From Candidatus Thorarchaeota archaeon (GTDB lineage Archaea; Asgardarchaeota; Thorarchaeia; Thorarchaeales; Thorarchaeaceae), in NCBI GenBank assembly GCA_003345595.1, contig PRDI01000022.1, forward strand, positions 1 through 34,299: a DNA stretch of 34,299 bases. Direction: 5' to 3'. Under the pieces are notes generated by a model, which was not told the origin of the DNA, did not search any database, and was given only the letters and a program-made list of their open reading frames with translations. Below are positions 2,732 to 34,299 of the stretch, one piece after another. Position numbers and translations under genes: made by a program. Numbering within the stretch: the stretch's first letter is position 1; each line of letters opens with the position of its first letter.

Positions 2732-3643
2732 CTACAGAGCACCGAATACTGCGATGAAGGCGAGCATGTCTGCAATTGCGTGAGAGAGCACAGCTCCCCA
2801 GATACTGTCCGACTTCTGGATTGTGTACCCCCATAGAAGGCCGTAGACCAATGCAATCAAGAGCAGAGTCACGAGCGCAACAGGTCCCATGAGTGGCAGC
2901 AGTGGTGCATGGAAAGCCGAGAAGACAAGGGATGTGAAAACAAGGGACGCTCTGGGTCCGAACAGAACCTCATACTTTCTAAGAAAAAGTCCACGGATAA
3001 TCAGCTCCTCCATGAAGCTGTTTGAGAATGCGAATATGAGCATCCATGGAATCCAACCAACCAGTATGTCGATTCCTACGCTTATGGCGAAGCCACCCAT
3101 TACAGCGAAATGCACCAGTTCTACAGGAACAGCCACGAATCCAAGTAGAAGCCCCTTCACCGGCTTCCCGCCTGTCAGATAGAGCGAGTGAAGACTGTCT
3201 TTGGCCGCCAGCATCAATACAATGACAGTCAACACAATCGGCAACGTTTCGGCGAACTTCGCAACTGCAGATCCCGTTGGAGAATCGACTGTAAGACCCG
3301 GAATCAGTTCGTACCAGCCGCCGAAGAGCCAGGCAAACAGAAATCCGAGGGCTACTGCGGTGAATGAGTATGCTATTCTGGAGTAGATTCGTGGAGCTCT
3401 TCGGTAGAGAACGAGTGCTACAACAAAAAGACCAGTAGGCACGATTATCTTGGCTATCAGCCTCGCAGTGGCGTCCATGAAGTAGTTGTACCCAGCAATC
3501 GTATAGACCAAGATGCTCGTCACGAATAGCAGTACGAAAAGAATGATGCGTGCCCCAAGACCACGTGTGGCCAGCATTGTCGCGCTCACACTGTCTGGAG
3601 TCTTATCACTCGTGGTCGAACCCTCTGACATTCTTCGTTTCAC
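2732..3643 (-). CDS. CPBP family (CAAX/Abi-like) intramembrane glutamic endopeptidase
   Basis: EELIIRG, FSAFH and HAIAD motifs; multi-TM. Confidence 0.9.
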   Translation of the reverse strand: MKRRMSEGSTTSDKTPDSVSATMLATRGLGARIILFVLLFVTSILVYTIAGYNYFMDATARLIAKIIVPTGLFVVALVLYRRAPRIYSRIAYSFTAVALGFLFAWLFGGWYELIPGLTVDSPTGSAVAKFAETLPIVLTVIVLMLAAKDSLHSLYLTGGKPVKGLLLGFVAVPVELVHFAVMGGFAISVGIDILVGWIPWMLIFAFSNSFMEELIIRGLFLRKYEVLFGPRASLVFTSLVFSAFHAPLLPLMGPVALVTLLLIALVYGLLWGYTIQKSDSIWGAVLSHAIADMLAFIAVFGAL

Positions 3644-3854
3644 CTGGCTTCATGAATGGATCCTGTACTAAACCTTCGACTCGCAATGCCATCTACTTAT
3701 CATCTCCGGTTCACTGCATATCCTTCCTGATCTCTTTGGTTGATGCATGCGAAGCAAGGTTTGTTCGATTCTATCCGTCACCAGTGATTATAATGTCCCC
3801 AAGAACTCATACGCTTGGCTTATTGCGAGCTTAGGAGTGAAACCGTTCATTGTG

Positions 3855-4008
3855 AGTTGGACAAAGTTGGACACAGGAGTCTTAGTCCTCCCAGAAACGG
3901 CACTGGGGTCGTACTCCTTGGGGCTGGAATGTGCCGAGTCAGCCTCAAAGAAACGTCTGATTCGAGCTATTTAAGCCCCCACTCGAAAGTGTCCAGGATT
4001 GTCCAACT
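3855..4008. repeat. 154-bp element, copy A, with 20-bp imperfect terminal inverted repeats built from tandem 10-mers
   Basis: AGTTGGACAA-AGTTGGACAC ... GTGTCCAGGA-TTGTCCAACT; ungapped homolog at 33861-34014. Confidence 0.9.
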
Positions 4009-4026
4009 TCTACGCAGCTGTTGCAT

Positions 4027-4064
4027 ACCCTGAGATCCGTCGTTCAAATCGACCCCCGCTACCA
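4027..4064 (+). repeat. tRNA-iMet 3' fragment, att-like copy 3
   Basis: accctgagatccgtcgttcaaatcgacccccgctacca followed by tcttcttt. Confidence 0.92.
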
Positions 4065-4245: not shown

Positions 4246-5694
4246 TTGACAAGCGGTTTCCCGAGGGGATTGAACGTGAGAGCCGCACCATTTGTCATTA
4301 TGGTTCTACTTGTGACTTTCCTGACAGTCACGTCCGGGCCGGCGTACTCGACAGAGAAGGATGGCCAAGGTGCAGTCAATGGTGAAACGACGCACACAGC
4401 TGTGACCGCTGGAATCTTGGCCCCACATACGCCCATCAACATAGCCTCTGATGTCGACTTTGCGGACCAAGGATGGCCCGGAAACGGAACCGAGGCGGCC
4501 CCATACGTGATAGAGGGGCTCAATATAACGTCCACAGAGGTGTGCATCAACATCTCAAGCGTGACTGTCCGCTTCGAGATCAGAGACTGTTTCATATCGT
4601 CTCCGGACACATCCTTGAATGATGGGATATACATCGATGGCGGGGACTATTGCTCGATCTCAGGCTGCATTGTTCAGTCACACTTGTCTGGTTTCCACCT
4701 GAACGACTCCCTAAAGTGCAAGCTGACCGGCAACAATGCAAGGGGCAACTCAGAGAGTGGTTTCTATCTGTATTATTCCGGCTTTCCTACACTGACCAAC
4801 AACACTGCGACCGGTAACTCAGGGAGTGGTTTCTATCTGGACTTTTGTACGGCCCTCTGCACGCTTGCAGGCAACAATGCGACCGGCAACTCAGGGAACG
4901 GTTTCTATCTGAATCATTGTGGCAGTAGCATGCTGACCAACAACACTGCGACTGGTAATGCAATCGACGGCTTCGTTCTATACATCCATGGTGGCAATGT
5001 GCTGAGCGACAACACCGCAAACGGCAACGCGGTGAACGGTTTCTATCTGGAAAAGTGGTTGTATGGTGACAGTACGCTGACCGACAATACTGCGACCGGC
5101 AACTCAGAATATGGTGTTCTTCTGGGCCCGAATTCTTCAGGGGATGTCATTTTCCTTAATGTGATCGGACCAAACGGTGTGGCGAATGCTCGGGATCGTG
5201 GATCGGCCAACAAATGGGATGATGATGTGTCATTGGGTAACTACTGGAGCGACTACAACGGTACGGGCGTCTATCCTATCCCTGGAACCGCGGGCAGTGT
5301 GGACAGGTTCCCGTCCAGTATTGAGCCGTCCATCAACCACCCAACGGATATGGAGTATGAAGAAGGCAGCACTGGTCACTCAATCAATTGGACCCCTTCG
5401 TGCCTCCATCCAGACCGATATGAAGTGTACAGAAATGATTCTTTGATAGCCTCTAGTGACTGGGATGGCTCTGACATCACGGTGAGTGTGGACGGTTTCA
5501 CTGCTGGGACGTACAGCTACACCATCATGGTGTTGGATGTCAATGGGTACTTTGCAACTGATGCAGTGATTGTCACTGTGCAGGCGTCAACTACAACAGG
5601 GTTTGACCCAATGATACTGCTTGTGGTTGCCGGTGTCGGGGCAGTCATCGTTGTCATCATCTTGGCGATTGGCCTTAGAAAGAGAAAGGTGTGA
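4246..5694 (+). CDS. Cell-surface protein: NosD-like right-handed beta-helix, Ig-like domain and C-terminal TM anchor
   Basis: N-terminal hydrophobic signal, repeated LTNNTATGNSxxGFYL units, GNYWSDY, and a C-terminal TM followed by RKRKV. Confidence 0.88.
   Translation: MTSGFPRGLNVRAAPFVIMVLLVTFLTVTSGPAYSTEKDGQGAVNGETTHTAVTAGILAPHTPINIASDVDFADQGWPGNGTEAAPYVIEGLNITSTEVCINISSVTVRFEIRDCFISSPDTSLNDGIYIDGGDYCSISGCIVQSHLSGFHLNDSLKCKLTGNNARGNSESGFYLYYSGFPTLTNNTATGNSGSGFYLDFCTALCTLAGNNATGNSGNGFYLNHCGSSMLTNNTATGNAIDGFVLYIHGGNVLSDNTANGNAVNGFYLEKWLYGDSTLTDNTATGNSEYGVLLGPNSSGDVIFLNVIGPNGVANARDRGSANKWDDDVSLGNYWSDYNGTGVYPIPGTAGSVDRFPSSIEPSINHPTDMEYEEGSTGHSINWTPSCLHPDRYEVYRNDSLIASSDWDGSDITVSVDGFTAGTYSYTIMVLDVNGYFATDAVIVTVQASTTTGFDPMILLVVAGVGAVIVVIILAIGLRKRKV
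4720..5112 (+). repeat. Intragenic tandem beta-helix repeats (about 22-24 aa, about 6 copies)
   Basis: Recurrent ctgaccaacaacactgcgaccgg and ggtttctatctg. Confidence 0.8.
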
Positions 5695-17126: not shown

Positions 17127-17225
17127 TGCCTGTCGCCTCGATCCAACTCTGCAACCACGGTCAGACCTTATCTGCGTTCTTGTGTGGCTCAGCGATTGCC
17201 GCCACAGTTCTCAAAAGCATCCAAT

Positions 17226-17277
17226 CCCGCTGGCTCCATGACCCTGAGATTGGTCGTTCAAATCGACCCCTGCTACC
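17226..17277 (+). repeat. tRNA-iMet 3' fragment, att-like copy 5
   Basis: cccgctggctccatgaccctgagattggtcgttcaaatcgacccctgctacc. Confidence 0.92.
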
Positions 17278-17875
17278 GCATCTCCTCTTTGTCGGTTTCA
17301 TAATGAAGCAAGACATTTCCGGATTGGAAGGCCCTTGTTTCCAGAAGCCTCAGGTTGAATCTCTTGACGTCTCTGAATAGGGGTTTGCCTGTCCCTAATA
17401 TGACCGGCGTTACAATAATCAAGTATTCGTCAATCAATCTTTCAGCCGCAAGTTGCTGCACAATCGTACCACTGCCGAATATTATCATGCCCGGACCTCT
17501 ACCTTGTTTTAGCTTCCTCACTTCTTCTGGGACATTGCCCTTAACTAGCCTTGAATTCTTCCAAGTGACTTCCTTCAGTGTGTTTGAAAACACCACCTTG
17601 GTCATGTGACTTAACTCATCGGCCGTGGCCCGAGCTTCCTTGGGAGCCGTTGGATCCGCCGCGACCTTCGGCCAGTGTCTCTCAAACATCTCGTAGGTCA
17701 CGCGGCCAAATAGAATCGTATCAAGATGCATCATCTCGTGCGTCGCTTTGTCAACTTCGAGATTATGCACAGCTTTGTCAACATCGGGATCAGGCACAAA
17801 CCAATCGATCTCTCCATTCGGCCCGGCGAAAAAGCCGTCGATAGAGATGCGATTCAACATGACGATTCTTCTCAT
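17273..17875 (-). CDS. Dihydrofolate reductase-like / RibD C-terminal domain protein
   Basis: SIDGFFAGP, LFGRVTY, KVVFSNTL, GSGTIV and IDEY...PVILGTGKPLF motifs. Confidence 0.93.
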   Translation of the reverse strand: MRRIVMLNRISIDGFFAGPNGEIDWFVPDPDVDKAVHNLEVDKATHEMMHLDTILFGRVTYEMFERHWPKVAADPTAPKEARATADELSHMTKVVFSNTLKEVTWKNSRLVKGNVPEEVRKLKQGRGPGMIIFGSGTIVQQLAAERLIDEYLIIVTPVILGTGKPLFRDVKRFNLRLLETRAFQSGNVLLHYETDKEEMR

Positions 17876-19884: not shown

Positions 19885-20020
19885 GCCGGGATTTCTATCG
19901 AAAGCCGAGGCATCCGTTATGACTCTTCTGAGAGAGCATCTGCTTCATGCTATTCAGATAATGACGGCCTGTGCGGTTGTCCTCTGTATTGCCGCTCCAT
20001 ATGGGCAGGAATCATCATAG

Positions 20021-20073
20021 CCGCGGGGCTTATGACCCTGAGATCGATTGTTCAGATCTGTCTCTCGCTTCCG
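20021..20073 (+). repeat. tRNA-iMet 3' fragment, att-like copy 6 (degenerate)
   Basis: ccgcggggcttatgaccctgagatcgattgttcagatctgtctctcgcttccg followed by cttcctct. Confidence 0.85.
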
Positions 20074-25005: not shown

Positions 25006-25249
25006 AAGCGTCTACGATACTGTAGCGGGACTGCTCTTCAGAGATAAAACCCTTGTCGGATTTCGCCGCTGTCAGATGGGGAGAACGCGTGCAACTGAAG
25101 AGGAACCACCAAGTCGGACCCACTCTCACTCGAATATCTAGTATGACTAGGTGATGAAAGACTCTTATAGCGACCTGCCTAGCTCTTGAGTCAGGATTTA
25201 GCAACTGACAACGGGTGTGAAGAGAAGAGTGGTGGCAAAAGCAGGGGCC

Positions 25250-27262
25250 ATGGCGATACCATATGGCGTGTCTCTTGAGGGCCTCATCAATGTCATACGC
25301 GCCTGGAATCGGGCACAGGGATATGCAAGACCTCTGAAGGCAGAGCAGGTCGCAGAACGGATAGAAACCGGTGCTAAGATCGCGAGTAGAGCGAAGGTAG
25401 TATGCAATCAGAGTTCATTCCTGATACAGCTCGGGGTTTTGGTGAAAGAGGGCCAATCGAATCGCCTCACCGAAGCCGGGCAGGAAGTGGCCCGTGCCGC
25501 AGACTCCCCGCTTCAGGAGGAATTCAACAGTCTGATGAAGAAACTGATTCTTGAGTGGAAGCAGGTACAGCCTCTGATTGAGTTCGTGCGTAATAGAGGA
25601 AAGGTTTCAAGAGGTGAAATGTTCGACCGGGTCCTTGAGGAAGCCAAGAAGTCGAAGAGTACTACCAATGCTGTAATGGGCGGCAACACGTTTGTTGAAC
25701 TCCTTCAGCGGGCAGGAATCCTGGTAGCGGAAGATGACTCTGTGAGCCTAGCAGGCGGACTTCCTCGTGCCGCGGTGAAACCGTTGACACCTGAGGTGTC
25801 TAGAACTGTAGAAACACCCGAGGCGCTCAGACCAGAGGAAGTGCCCGAAACCCCCGAAGCAGTAGAAACACCCGAGATTCCCGAGGTTCTAGAAACATGC
25901 GAGGTTGCCACACCAGAAGAGGTTCCTGAGACCCTCAAACCTGTGGAAACAGTTGGGGGTCCCACGTCAGAGGAAGCACCTGAGGTTTCCAAACCCGTAG
26001 AGGTACCGGCGTCCTCCGAAGCTGTGGAAGCACCTGAGGTCATCAAGCCTGTAGAAACACCTGAGGCGCCTGCACCAGAAGAGGCGCCTGAGATTATCAA
26101 ACCTGTCGAGGGACCTGAGGAGCCCACACCAGAGAAAACACCCGAGGCCGCCATGCCGGAAGAAGTGCCGGAGGTTTCCACGCCAGAAGAGGCCCTCGAG
26201 ATTCCGACACCAGAGGAAGAACCCGAGGCTCCCACGCCAGAAGAAGCACCTGAGGCCCTCAAACCTGTGGAGGAACCTGAACCCGCCAAAGCTGTAGAGG
26301 AAGCCGAGGTCTCCACAAAAGAGGAAGCGCCTGAAGTTCCCAAACCTGCAGAAACACCTGAGGAGCCCACACCAGAAAAAGATCCTGAGGCCCCCACACG
26401 AAAAGAGGCGCCCGAGATTTCCAAACCGGTAGAGGTAGCTGAGGAGCAGAAGCAAGAGAGAGTGGAGGAATCATCTGAAGAGAAAGAACATCGCCTTCCG
26501 GGAGCGAGATACCTGTTGGGGCTGGTTGTGATATATGCTGCAATATACGCCCAGTACATACTACCAAGCATGGGTCTCGTGTTTGACATGCTGTTGGTGT
26601 ATGGAGTCCCGATAGTTGTCATCGGCTATCTCTGGGGTCGTCAGATTCTGCATCGATCTCTGAATAAGATGTATGCAGCGGTGAAGTATGGGTTTGCTTC
26701 CTATGGCGGCTTTACTGCCCTGGGCTATCTGATATCGCTGGTGCTAGTGATCCTGCTTATCCTATTTGACCCATCCTCTCTCAATCTTCTACAAAATCCA
26801 GATCCTGTACTGAACACCACACCTGAGAATGCTTGGCTCCTAGTGTGGCTCTCTTTCATTGTTGTGGGCCCAGCAGAGGAGTTTCTCTTTCGAGGTTTCA
26901 TCTATGGTGGATTACTCAACATGTTCGGCAATCGTCACTGGCTGTCGTTGGCATTTCTATCATCAATCCTCTTCGCAGCGGTTCACCTGTACTATGCGCT
27001 TGACTACGGTATCGTATCAGTGATCATGTTCACTCAACTGATTTCCTTCGGCATGGCAATGGCCGTTTCGTACTACCTTTCTGGAGGAAACCTACTGGTT
27101 CCCGCCTTTATCCATGGTCTATTTGATGCAACCGGATTCCTCACGATTGCCTTTTCATTCGAACTTGGGGCTAGTCTTAGGCTGGACTTTGTCTTTGTCT
27201 CTCTGGCTGTTCTTCTATACGTGTCGCTGCAACGGCTCGGAAGCAGGAAGGTTTCATACTAG
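25250..27262 (+). CDS. Fusion protein: N-terminal winged-helix-like region, Pro/Glu-rich repeat linker, C-terminal CPBP protease
   Basis: EEFLFRG, FAAVH and HGLFD motifs; about 230 aa of PE/EEAPE/KPVE repeats; FLIQLGVL...RLTEAG wing-like motif. Confidence 0.85.
   Translation: MAIPYGVSLEGLINVIRAWNRAQGYARPLKAEQVAERIETGAKIASRAKVVCNQSSFLIQLGVLVKEGQSNRLTEAGQEVARAADSPLQEEFNSLMKKLILEWKQVQPLIEFVRNRGKVSRGEMFDRVLEEAKKSKSTTNAVMGGNTFVELLQRAGILVAEDDSVSLAGGLPRAAVKPLTPEVSRTVETPEALRPEEVPETPEAVETPEIPEVLETCEVATPEEVPETLKPVETVGGPTSEEAPEVSKPVEVPASSEAVEAPEVIKPVETPEAPAPEEAPEIIKPVEGPEEPTPEKTPEAAMPEEVPEVSTPEEALEIPTPEEEPEAPTPEEAPEALKPVEEPEPAKAVEEAEVSTKEEAPEVPKPAETPEEPTPEKDPEAPTRKEAPEISKPVEVAEEQKQERVEESSEEKEHRLPGARYLLGLVVIYAAIYAQYILPSMGLVFDMLLVYGVPIVVIGYLWGRQILHRSLNKMYAAVKYGFASYGGFTALGYLISLVLVILLILFDPSSLNLLQNPDPVLNTTPENAWLLVWLSFIVVGPAEEFLFRGFIYGGLLNMFGNRHWLSLAFLSSILFAAVHLYYALDYGIVSVIMFTQLISFGMAMAVSYYLSGGNLLVPAFIHGLFDATGFLTIAFSFELGASLRLDFVFVSLAVLLYVSLQRLGSRKVSY
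25790..26480 (+). repeat. Intragenic low-complexity tandem repeats (TPEEAPE / KPVE)
   Basis: Recurrent ccagaagaggcgcctgag and aaacctgtagaaacacc. Confidence 0.85.
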
Positions 27263-27714: not shown

Positions 27715-27888
27715 CGACTCTTCATAGTACTGGAACGTACTAGAATGTATTGTGCGTCGCTTCTAGGCTTGGACGCCGCCAGCATTATGATGCTGACTTC
27801 TGACCAGATGCATCGGACTCACTTGCCTTCTCGTCGGAGCACCACATATCCACAGATGCGCTCATCTGCCTCTTGCAGGCCACCGTCA

Positions 27889-27973
27889 ATCCCGTAGGGC
27901 TCATGCCCCCAGCTCAATAGGAACTTCAGAGTGAAACCCCGAATTGGTCATTCAAATCCATCCCTGGTCACCA
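27889..27973 (+). repeat. tRNA-iMet 3' fragment, copy 8, with a 30-nt insert at position 37/38
   Basis: atcccgtagggctcatg [27906-27935] accccgaattggtcattcaaatccatccctggtcacca followed by tctctct. Confidence 0.8.
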
Positions 27974-28000
27974 TCTCTCTCTGCTTGCATTCGAAACGGC

Positions 28001-28771
28001 TCAATCATCCGAGTCACCTTGAGTCCTTATCTCGTTCCAGACTCGAGAAGCGTGCTTCTTGCAGGTAACCGCATGACGATGCCAACCACCCATTCCAGCC
28101 CTCTTTCCAGACCATGTTCGGAAGTTCTCACTCAATAGTGGAAGACAATGTTGGCTTTCTATGGGTGAACTCAGTGGGACCGCCTTCTTGAACAGACCCA
28201 GCGTGTCCTCCTTGCCGGCAATCCAAAGATCAGCCGGACTCTTGCAGTAGAAATGCGGATTCGACCTGAAGCGAGCCTGATCTTCGTCTGGTGCATGCTC
28301 GAAGCCCTCTTGAGTGAACCACCGTTCGATCTCAAACGCGCCCACAATGTATCCACCCCATTCAGGGTTTACTTGTGGATTGCGAAGAGACTTGTCAATA
28401 CTCCTGTAGTCAAGGGTAGCCAAGAAGAGAAGAATGTCGCCTTGTTGTAGCGATTCGAGTAGTGGTTCGTATCCATATCCTCGTTTCACGTGCCCATAGG
28501 TTCGAAACTTGAAGTCTGGATCGTTGTGAGCCCTCATCCGGGCCAGTTCAGGTATCAGATCTGAAAGACTTGCATTTCTGAACTCCCAGAGGTTTGCGTA
28601 CTTTGAACGAGTGTAGTCGCGCACCCGCAATTCTGCATACGTCGGCAACCGCCTGCAATTCCAACCAACCGCAGGAATCGGAAAGAACACGAAGCTTCTG
28701 TCGGGAAACACCAACCCTCTCATCCCGCCGCTCAACCCGACGTTTATCACTACCAGCTTCAATAGATTCAA
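28001..28771 (-). CDS. Nmad3-like (nucleotide modification-associated domain 3) protein
   Basis: INVG...RGLVFPDRSFVFFPIP, PTYAEL, HNDPDF..RTYG, GDILLFLATL, WGGYIVG and NPH; family recognised from memory. Confidence 0.7.
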   Translation of the reverse strand: MNLLKLVVINVGLSGGMRGLVFPDRSFVFFPIPAVGWNCRRLPTYAELRVRDYTRSKYANLWEFRNASLSDLIPELARMRAHNDPDFKFRTYGHVKRGYGYEPLLESLQQGDILLFLATLDYRSIDKSLRNPQVNPEWGGYIVGAFEIERWFTQEGFEHAPDEDQARFRSNPHFYCKSPADLWIAGKEDTLGLFKKAVPLSSPIESQHCLPLLSENFRTWSGKRAGMGGWHRHAVTCKKHASRVWNEIRTQGDSDD

Positions 28772-29121
28772 CCCTTCTCTTGAAATGGAACACCACAGAG
28801 TGTCTTGAGCCTTACTCTGCCAGTCAAGACAGTGGCGCTCTGCCTAGAAACGGAATTGATCGCCAAACTCGACAGCCCGCCATGACTTATCTTGTGATCT
28901 CGATGAATCATGAAATCAAGATCCACGTACAGATGAGATATCTGCCAGCCAGCTGTGCCACCAGTACATGGAACTCGATGACTTGGTCCGGCTCTTTCGA
29001 GCCAAATGACAACAGCGGCTAACAGCGAGGCTCGCGACAGGTACGTCATAGCCTGTGACCGATGTCAAGGTTTATTAGAAAATGCAGTAGTTCACCATAG
29101 TTAAATGAGGAGCTGATTCCG

Positions 29122-29808
29122 ATGTCCCAGAAAGCAAAGAGAACGAAACAGGTCATTGAGAAGAGAGCAACCATGAGAATCGCGCTGATTGGAATCGGTC
29201 ATGTCGGCAGAGCTCTGGCGGAGCACTGGAGCAAGGCGGGTCATGAGATCTGGCTGGCTAGTGACAGAAAGGATTCACCAAGCGTCGAGGAAGCTCTGAG
29301 GGCACATCCAGACTGGAAGCGTGCAGGTGTGCAGGAAGCGGTGAATCAGGTCGATGCGGTCGTACTTGCGGTTCCTTTTGATGCCGTGTCGAGTGCCATC
29401 TCTGGTGTGCGCTTCGGTGGCAAACTCCTGATCGACTGCACCAATCCAATCGGTCCAGGATTCACCCACGCTCTGAAGAGCGAACGCTCAGGCTCTGAGT
29501 TTGTCCAGGAATTGGTGCCAGATGCACATGTAGTCAAAGCCTTCAACATCTATGGGTATGAGAACCTCGTTCAGGTCCCGCAGGACGGTTCAGGCCGACG
29601 ACCCGTGATGTTAATGGCTGGCAATGATTCCGGTGCCAAGGCAGTGGCTTCGAACCTGATTGCCGACGTCGGTTTTGAAGCAAAAGACACTGGTCCTCTC
29701 AATCAGGCTCTGCATCTGGAGCACATGACTCTGCTCTGGGTCAAGATGGTCAGGAACCAAGGTCATACGTCACATTTCGTATGGGCCTATGTGGAACAGA
29801 AGCCATGA
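29122..29808 (+). CDS. NADPH-dependent F420 reductase-like (F420_oxidored family) dinucleotide-binding enzyme
   Basis: IGIGHVG, VLAVP, IDCTNP, VVKAFN and DTGPL..A..LE motifs. Confidence 0.92.
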   Translation: MSQKAKRTKQVIEKRATMRIALIGIGHVGRALAEHWSKAGHEIWLASDRKDSPSVEEALRAHPDWKRAGVQEAVNQVDAVVLAVPFDAVSSAISGVRFGGKLLIDCTNPIGPGFTHALKSERSGSEFVQELVPDAHVVKAFNIYGYENLVQVPQDGSGRRPVMLMAGNDSGAKAVASNLIADVGFEAKDTGPLNQALHLEHMTLLWVKMVRNQGHTSHFVWAYVEQKP

Positions 29809-29941
29809 GGACAGCTTCTTTGAGTCTGAACATCTTGGTAACTAGGAAGCGATATGGCAGCTGACCTTGGCTAGCCCGCCTGCTTCTTGGACCGCCAACA
29901 ATCGCTCCTCGTCAACATTGCTAGTACTCGTCTTCAGAGTG

Positions 29942-30014
29942 AGGACTCGCCCATCGCTCACCAGCAAGATTGAGAAATCTGATATTGGTCCTTCAGATTG
30001 ACCGTCTGCCGCCA
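29942..30014 (+). repeat. tRNA-iMet 3' fragment, copy 9 (most degenerate), with a related intron-like insert
   Basis: aggactc [gcccatcgctcaccagcaagattgaga] aatctgatattggtccttcagattgaccgtctgccgcca followed by tct. Confidence 0.7.
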
Positions 30015-33736: not shown

Positions 33737-33860
33737 CTTCTCTTTCGTGCTGGTTCGCCACTGCTGTTTCAGGCTGTGTTAATAATCTATGGAGTAACTC
33801 TGATCAGATGCGTCAGAGCCACCTACCTTCTTGCCAGAACTTCACGTACCGTTCATTGTA

Positions 33861-34014
33861 AGTTGGACAAAGTTGAACACAGGAGTCTTTGTCCTCCCAG
33901 AAACGGCACTGGGGTCGTGCTCCTCAAAGCCGGAATGTGTGGAGCCAGCCTCAAAGAGATGTATGGTTCGAGCTGTTCAGGTCCCCAGTACAGAATGTCC
34001 AAGATTGTCCAACT
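33861..34014. repeat. 154-bp element, copy B
   Basis: AGTTGGACAA-AGTTGAACAC ... ATGTCCAAGA-TTGTCCAACT; constant 30006-bp offset from copy A over 3842-4034. Confidence 0.9.
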
Positions 34015-34299
34015 TTCAGGCAGGTGCTACCTATTCTGAGGACATGATACCCTCCTAGCGAACAAGCATAGAGATACGAGACATGAACACAATTCGGACT
34101 GGGAGATCCTAATCTGGAATCACGGACCTCGGATGTCTATCTGAACAGGTGCATGGCTGGATGAGAATCTCGCGAATGAAATGATAGTTCTGCTCAAACC
34201 TCATGCCAGTTATGCTGATTGTACTGTATTTTCTCCTAGAGCAGATGGTACTAGCGGACTAGGACGGAGGTACTCGGGTTTCCGCAAGGTGCCAAGACA

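Follow-up and report, generated by a model that had tools for sequence, protein, structure and literature searches.

Probable relics of the 37/38 intron of initiator tRNA-Met in the repeat arrays of a Candidatus Thorarchaeota archaeon

Contig PRDI01000022.1 (C22) of assembly GCA_003345595.1 (G000), from a Candidatus Thorarchaeota archaeon, carries a family of co-oriented repeats derived from the rear part of an initiator-type methionine tRNA gene (tRNA-iMet), and one of these repeats, copy 8, holds a 30-nucleotide (nt) insert that, as judged by sequence comparison, is a real relic of the canonical tRNA-iMet intron at position 37/38. This insert, at 27906-27935, and a second one, at 3812-3841, are probably 37/38 intron relics that have survived in attachment-site (att)-type scars between gene cassettes, where recombination would shape the intron state. 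The window analyzed here is the whole of C22 (34,299 nt), one of 129 contigs in an assembly that is 83% complete. It was compared with three other genomes of the same genus (G001, G002, and G003); in addition, a family set of 86 genomes was searched for arrays, and 60 relatives were searched with copy 1 of the repeat.

An intron relic in copy 8 and its counterparts

By direct reading, copy 8 comprises three adjoining segments on the plus strand. The 5′ part (27889-27905) covers tRNA-iMet positions ~22-37, namely the 3′ strand of the D stem, the 5′ strand of the anticodon stem, and the anticodon loop up to G37, whereas the 3′ exon relic (27936-27973) covers positions 38-76 and has a broken T arm. 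The 30-nt insert, of an intron family here termed family A, stands exactly between CTCATG (27900-27905) and ACCC (27936-27939), just where the original prediction, made from the sequence alone, had placed it. A covariance model (CM), R1, built solely from intron-bearing copies of other genomes (G003 and G002), aligned 27889-27973 end to end with its intron columns filled (41.8 bits, E 4e-10). The same model aligned copies 1 (277-331), 2 (2495-2549), 5 (17224-17278), and 6 (20018-20073), all on the plus strand, with the intron columns deleted in each, which bears out the earlier statement that these four are uninterrupted. Copy 1 reads CTCATG and then directly ACCC, and all four carry CTCATG or a variant of it followed by ACCC without a gap. 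Because G37 is common to copy 8 and the intron-free copies of G000, the latter correspond to copy 8 minus exactly 30 nt.

The insert has a homolog in a live gene. An intact tRNA-iMet gene of G003 contains an intron of equal length at the same site, and the two are identical at 21 of 30 positions without gaps. In global alignment this similarity has a z score of 5.6, with 0 of 3000 shuffles as good, and only 5 of the 5.46 million 30-mers in the G000 assembly reach the same identity to the live intron. Similarity to the intron of a copy on another contig of G000, C42, is of the same order (z 6.0-6.1). The original prediction had proposed to look for a homologous intron of ~30 nt at 37/38 in the tRNA-iMet genes of relatives, and the G003 gene supplies it. 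The end-to-end CM alignment and the 21/30 identity together identify the insert of copy 8 as a relic of the canonical intron. An unrelated insertion or a chance resemblance, in favor of which only the decayed state of copy 8 can be cited, is effectively refuted by the shared length and junction, the 70% identity to a live intron, and the outcome of the shuffles and of the genome-wide 30-mer comparison. The hairpin of the copy 8 insert is degraded and folds no better than shuffled sequence (fold z -0.14). Homology of this intron is limited to the genus family and one stray copy in genome G081: introns of live tRNA-iMet genes outside the genus all gave z <2 against copy 8, copy 9, and the relic at 3812-3841, and BLAST of the copy 8 region against the 60 relatives returned only an intron tail in G002. 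The live G003 intron came to light through the flanks of 3′-exon matches.

The original prediction described such inserts in the two most decayed repeats, but the wider survey shows that they are not confined to these. A well-preserved intron-bearing copy with a homologous insert of 31-32 nt lies at C42:26616-26700 (CM 69.2 bits; fold z -2.2), and another homologous intron-bearing copy lies on C42 at ~3200. Within the window, a second family A intron relic of 30 nt (3812-3841, plus strand) follows a 5′ part relic upstream of copy 3 (3795-3811, plus strand; CM match 3806-3842). This relic is likewise 21/30 identical to the live G003 intron in ungapped comparison, which places it within the genome-wide top five 30-mers, and its local alignment to copy 8 was equaled by 0 of 1000 shuffles. 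To judge from these alignments, it is a decayed copy of the 37/38 tRNA-iMet intron of the genus.

A unit of 185 nt (3842-4026, plus strand; repeat D3) separates this relic from the copy 3 3′ exon, which was located by CM at 4027-4064 (plus strand). The unit occurs three times, at 3842-4026, at 33848-34040, and on the minus strand of C42 at ~2975-3160. It always lies directly upstream of a 3′-exon copy, in two of the three cases exactly between an intron relic and a 3′ exon, and it contains no convincing open reading frame (ORF). The unit may be an enlarged intron, or else a small element that was inserted.

Repeat finding placed the starts of copies 1-9 at 278, 2495, 4011, 5710, 17225, 20019, 22936, 27889, and 29930-29976, giving eight or nine copies on C22. 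The repeats span the CAT-bearing anticodon arm, the T arm, and the ACCA end. Common to all copies are tRNA positions 38-76 (the 39-nt 3′ exon) and a short pyrimidine-rich trailer, and about half of the copies additionally keep positions ~22-37 (the 16-nt 5′ part). A further 23 repeats of the tRNA-iMet 3′ part, spaced 0.6-3 kb apart, occupy the minus strand of C42 (32.7 kb). The repeats separate gene cassettes of ~1 kb and are co-oriented direct repeats bounding inserted DNA, as att-type scars require. All lack the tRNA 5′ half, and none is a working tRNA: ARAGORN and Rfam searches of the window found no tRNA, and ARAGORN run on the whole of G000 called none on C22 or C42, so the repeats are fragments. 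Of the 86 genomes of the family set, only the four that belong to the genus have arrays of this type; the remaining 82 have none. Directly upstream of the copy 8 cassette, a plus-strand ORF of 681 amino acids (25217-27262) contains imperfect 27/54-nt coding repeats at 25789-26469 that are rich in proline and glutamate codons.

Live tRNA-iMet genes and intron states across the genus

In the search with copy 1, the three other genomes of the genus were the only ones to yield multi-copy arrays; matches elsewhere were single. Several of the single matches start exactly at position 38 because, as the fetched flanks revealed, the live genes are interrupted at 37/38 by an intron. The most informative live gene, G003:C10:4598-4739, is an intact tRNA-iMet gene at the head of a 15-copy array, with two introns, one of 33 nt in the D loop and one of 30 nt at 37/38. 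When the D-loop intron is removed, ARAGORN calls the gene as tRNA-Met(CAT) with a full cloverleaf and places the 30-nt intron between tcata and accct; the tRNA has an A1-U72 pair, and its anticodon stem has three G-C pairs at the base. The family A intron of this gene is a putative spliced tRNA intron. Most live tRNA-iMet genes of the family have an intron of 20-37 nt at 37/38, with lengths of 20 nt and of 30-37 nt, and some have none there, and the total per gene ranges from zero to three (D loop, 37/38, and T loop or variable region). Those with multiple introns were miscalled or missed by ARAGORN. For annotation, the consequence is that standard tRNA finders miss the two-intron live gene and all of the relics.

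When the 5′ half of a relative's tRNA-iMet was used as a BLAST query, no counterpart turned up in the 83%-complete G000 assembly, and ARAGORN found no tRNA-Met in it. Among the tRNAs that ARAGORN did call in G000 is an intron-containing one at G000:C106:12486-12593 with anticodon CTA, labelled Pyl (Rfam tRNA 45 bits). G001 has a candidate gene at G001:C60:6188-6515 that is intron-free at 37/38 and has a 5′ half with two acceptor-stem mismatches. At this locus (G001:C60:6184-6515, L028), the tRNA-iMet 5′ half lies ~245 nt upstream of the intron-free rear part, at a contig end; the locus may be a pseudogene or a gene whose D-loop intron is very long.

The structure of the introns was compared with the bulge-helix-bulge (BHB) motif, in which two 3-nt bulges flank a helix of 4 bp that involves positions 32-35. 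The D-loop intron of G003 and the intron-bearing tRNAs of G000 itself served to calibrate the geometry: four pairs using positions 32-35, with two intron nucleotides and A38 in the 3′ bulge. In 24 live tRNA-iMet genes, an N-G-(A/G)-G motif (TCGG in G008) followed by two nucleotides precedes A38 and fits this geometry, and the motif can pair with C32-U33-C34. Among the sequences that match the geometry are G035, G004, G016, and, within the G003 array, its last copy. In the intron family of the genus, the N-G-(A/G)-G motif lies two nucleotides further upstream of the splice site. Across copies the intron hairpin keeps its inner 5 bp, with exchanges of C-G to U-A and of U-A to C-G, and the well-preserved intron-bearing copies fold better than shuffled sequences (z -2.2 to -2.8).

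Intron states were classified for 59 copies in the four genomes, with a 14-nt 5′-part motif (at most three mismatches) as the marker. In G000, 14 copies are clearly intron-free, two are clean intron-bearing copies, and 16 have no detectable 5′ part. G003 has six copies, including the live gene, with the 5′ part and an intron of 28-33 nt, and one that is intron-free; several further copies keep only the intron hairpin or its tail, with GAGTGA before A38. Every G001 copy with a 5′ part is intron-free (including G001:C79:31), and G002 has only intron tails. In G003 the live gene is intron-bearing and its pool mostly so, and in G001 the candidate gene, with its two acceptor-stem mismatches, and the pool are intron-free. 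Within the G003 array alone, the introns at 37/38 include at least three unrelated sequences, those of the copies at 4700, 16905, and 26631. Intron-bearing and intron-free att-type copies of one tRNA therefore coexist, as the intron transfer model of Sugahara et al. (2012; PMC3293823) requires. The left flank of copy 8 (27848-27888) shares ~40 nt with that of the last G003 copy (G003:C10 ~26545-26585), although the introns of these two copies belong to different families.

Outside the genus, a decayed repeat of the genus type with a family A intron was found at G081:C151:1167-1251, on a 2.75-kb contig of a genome from another genus. The live tRNA-iMet of G081 (G081:C205) has a different intron of 21 nt as well as a T-loop intron. 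The stray copy reflects either horizontal transfer or mis-binning.

Copy 9, recombination, and rival histories

The original prediction assigned to copy 9 an insert related to that of copy 8, and here the outcome is mixed. The 3′ exon relic (29976-30014, plus strand; nhmmer E 9e-6, CM 20.5 bits) is real, and a TGAG-AA end does precede A38 and fits the BHB geometry, without a secure 5′ side; a related insert is not established, with p values of ~0.02-0.07 and a CM reading that is intron-free. The fossil-intron interpretation accordingly stands for copy 8, which has a homologous live intron, and is not demonstrable for copy 9. The 47 nt upstream of its 3′ exon (29929-29975, plus strand) allow three candidate registers. 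Register (a) takes AGGACTC at 29942-29948 as the decayed 5′ part, followed by an insert of 27-28 nt ending in TGAG-AA; register (b) places a decayed, intron-free 5′ part at 29959-29975; and register (c) reads an out-of-register intron tail, in which an exact 11-mer at 29932-29942 equals 27924-27934, the 3′ end of the copy 8 intron. In shuffle tests the copy 9 and copy 8 inserts are similar at z 2.1-2.4 (p 0.02-0.03), and single comparisons gave p values from 0.005 to 0.2. The summed p value for the 47 nt against eight intron-bearing references is 0.044, and in local alignment with 11 references the best score has a p value of 0.07, with a match that is out of register.

On balance, copy 9 may well be another intron-bearing scar in register (a). 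AGGACTC matches the 5′ part of copy 1 at 7 of 7 positions and at the right distance, the live G035 intron has the same 3′ end as the TTGAGAA that precedes A38, those of G006 and G085 differing from it by one base, and local alignments to copy 8 and to G002:C13:2028 span the whole insert. These points tell against a competing explanation, namely that copy 9 is intron-free and heavily mutated and that its apparent insert is a decayed 5′ part (29959-29975) preceded by unrelated sequence. That explanation is nonetheless a serious possibility, if somewhat short of probable: the CM chose its register, taking 29959-30014 as intron-free, the 5′ parts of copy 2 and of a G001 copy have a match to CCAGCA at 29961-29966, similarity to the 5′ part of copy 1 is appreciable (z 2.5, p 0.014), and the insert-to-insert similarity is marginal. 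A separate proposal, that 29927-29963 is an extra tandem 3′-exon relic, was dropped for want of a CM match. Over the 5.3 kb that follow the last G003 copy, no additional copy that could be an ortholog of copy 9 was found, and that region shows no synteny with the Nmad3 or F420-type oxidoreductase cassette adjoining copy 9.

The proposed mechanism would operate through the blocks that the copies share, i.e., the 3′ exon with its trailer and the 5′ part. Recombination in these blocks would fuse the resident tRNA gene with an incoming site and displace the gene's old rear part downstream. Where one partner is intron-bearing and the other intron-free, the crossover point would set the outcome for the resident gene (intron kept, lost, or gained), and the displaced scar would record the other state. 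Such crossover-dependent outcomes would explain why the arrays mix intron-bearing, intron-free, and 3′-exon-only copies. Because no recombinase is linked to the arrays, we infer both the recombination mechanism and the crossover locations.

Several observations weigh against the interpretation of the two window inserts as intron relics in scars shaped by recombination. The live tRNA-iMet of G000 was not assembled, and no recombination event can therefore be reconstructed in G000. No match to PF00589 (tyrosine recombinases) or PF00239 (serine recombinases) was found anywhere in the 83%-complete G000 assembly, no recombinase was found in 10 ORFs of the window, and none was found among the ORFs of at least 120 amino acids scanned in the first 8 kb of G003:C10; recombinase matches in G003 lie only on contigs other than the one with the array (G003:C17:26928-27440 and G003:C3:855244-855618). 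Cassettes of ~1 kb without an integrase are also atypical for integrated elements. On the structural side, the live G003 family A intron forms only two of the four central BHB pairs in the canonical register, its minimum-energy fold is a shifted register with a single bulged A38, and covariation in the intron does not exceed that of shuffles (seven sequences).

If the inserts are intron relics, as is probable, their history may be read in more than one way. One history is loss in place, in which the tRNA-iMet gene of G000 was once intron-bearing and was replaced by an intron-free site, the intron-bearing scars being the oldest layers. Loss from G000's own gene is plausible, although as the actual course of events it appears rather unlikely. 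The far end of the C22 array is occupied by copy 8 and the possible copy 9, both decayed, G000 has mainly intron-free copies, which share G37 with copy 8, and the live G003 gene keeps its intron while the G001 candidate is intron-free at 37/38. The weight of that candidate is reduced by the two acceptor-stem mismatches in its 5′ half, and the G000 gene itself is missing from the assembly. Position in the array is a poor guide as well: the well-preserved copy at C42:26616-26700 sits among intron-free copies, the relic at 3795-3841 is near the head of C22, the relative order of C22 and C42 is not given by the assembly, and an intron-free copy in G003 lies amid intron-bearing ones, so that array order is no simple time series.

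The intron-bearing repeats could instead have been imported with cassettes or elements whose att sites were copied from the intron-bearing alleles of other strains or genera, in which case the scars would say nothing about G000's own gene. This history is possible and is advanced only tentatively. It would suit the three or more unrelated introns at one site in the G003 copies, the left flank of ~40 nt that copy 8 and the last G003 copy share despite their different introns, and the stray G081 copy, which is of the genus type in another genus with a different live intron of its own. Copy 8 and the copy on C42 also pair a CCCCG 3′ stem strand with an A28-type 5′ strand, and the resulting mismatch (A28, C42) looks chimera-like. 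Such stem mismatches may equally reflect plain decay, the 2.75-kb G081 contig may be mis-binned, and no free element or circular form was seen.

A bolder reading would treat the att-site copies as carriers that install, swap, and delete the tRNA-iMet 37/38 intron, with the arrays as a layered record of this turnover. The sites would stay spliceable, each having once been part of a working gene, and the range of zero to three introns across the family would have arisen from a protracted conflict of the gene with the machinery that inserts the cassettes. Taken jointly, these propositions are speculative and unlikely to hold in full. If the carrier reading were true, the arrays would form a natural data set for testing both the idea that introns protect tRNA genes and the idea that mobile elements spread tRNA introns.

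Comparison with known systems

Canonical archaeal pre-tRNA introns reportedly lie at 37/38 and are said to be cut at a BHB by the splicing endonuclease, a description that is attributed to Marck and Grosjean (2003). The introns described here resemble these in their site, in their lengths of 20-37 nt, and in their internal hairpin, and most members of the family have the N-G-(A/G)-G motif and two nucleotides before A38. They differ in that the window holds a relic without function, enclosed in a tRNA fragment, and in that the motif of the genus lies two nucleotides further from the splice site, so that a clean BHB does not form in the canonical register.

Introns and split tRNA genes are said to have been proposed, by Randau and Soll in 2008, as a protection against integrating elements, an idea that PMC3293823 also mentions. 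This proposal fits the location of the intron, in the anticodon loop and within the region that the repeats duplicate. In G003, however, an intron-bearing gene heads an array of intron-carrying copies, which argues against strong protection in this case: a large array has built up at the tRNA-iMet gene despite the 37/38 intron. The debate over whether tRNA introns are a shield against integrating DNA or are spread by it has so far drawn mostly on single cases. The present arrays offer dozens of copies of one att region, dated by decay and comprising intron-bearing, intron-free, and tail-only forms, beside which the live genes of close relatives differ in intron state. With closed genomes, the direction and frequency of intron gain and loss would become measurable.

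The closest parallel is the tRNA-Thr(GGU) locus of Caldiarchaeum subterraneum, where recombination between an intron-containing attP and an intron-free attB is proposed to have delivered an intron (Sugahara et al. 2012; PMC3293823), a transfer model that is also summarized in PMC8371274. Both systems show intron-bearing and intron-free versions of one tRNA att region in close relatives, and in both the inserted DNA is flanked by tRNA fragments. The Caldiarchaeum locus represents a single event with a non-canonical 24/25 intron, a 5′ fragment, and an adjacent recombinase gene, whereas the thorarchaeal arrays have a canonical 37/38 intron, dozens of 3′-part copies, and no linked recombinase, and may record either gain or loss of the intron.

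In Thaumarchaeota, 10 of 39 tRNA integrations are in intron-containing genes (Krupovic et al. 2019; PMC6563490; reviewed in PMC8371274), and introns therefore do not prevent targeting. The integrated elements of Thaumarchaeota also resemble the present arrays in the tandem re-use of one tRNA site (PMC6563490; PMC8371274). They are whole elements with integrases, while the arrays here number from 15 to more than 30 copies and their units are ~1-kb cassettes without an integrase. Stacked cassettes and tandem islands at tRNA genes, tycheposons among them (bioRxiv 10.1101/2020.12.28.424599), reportedly also consist of rows of cargo units separated by partial tRNA copies; they are bacterial and are not known to carry introns, and the likeness concerns the array and not the intron. 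Att sites of mobile genetic elements in intron-containing tRNA genes were thus already known, and att-mediated intron transfer had already been proposed; what is new is a much richer example of att-mediated mixing of tRNA intron states than the single Caldiarchaeum locus provides.

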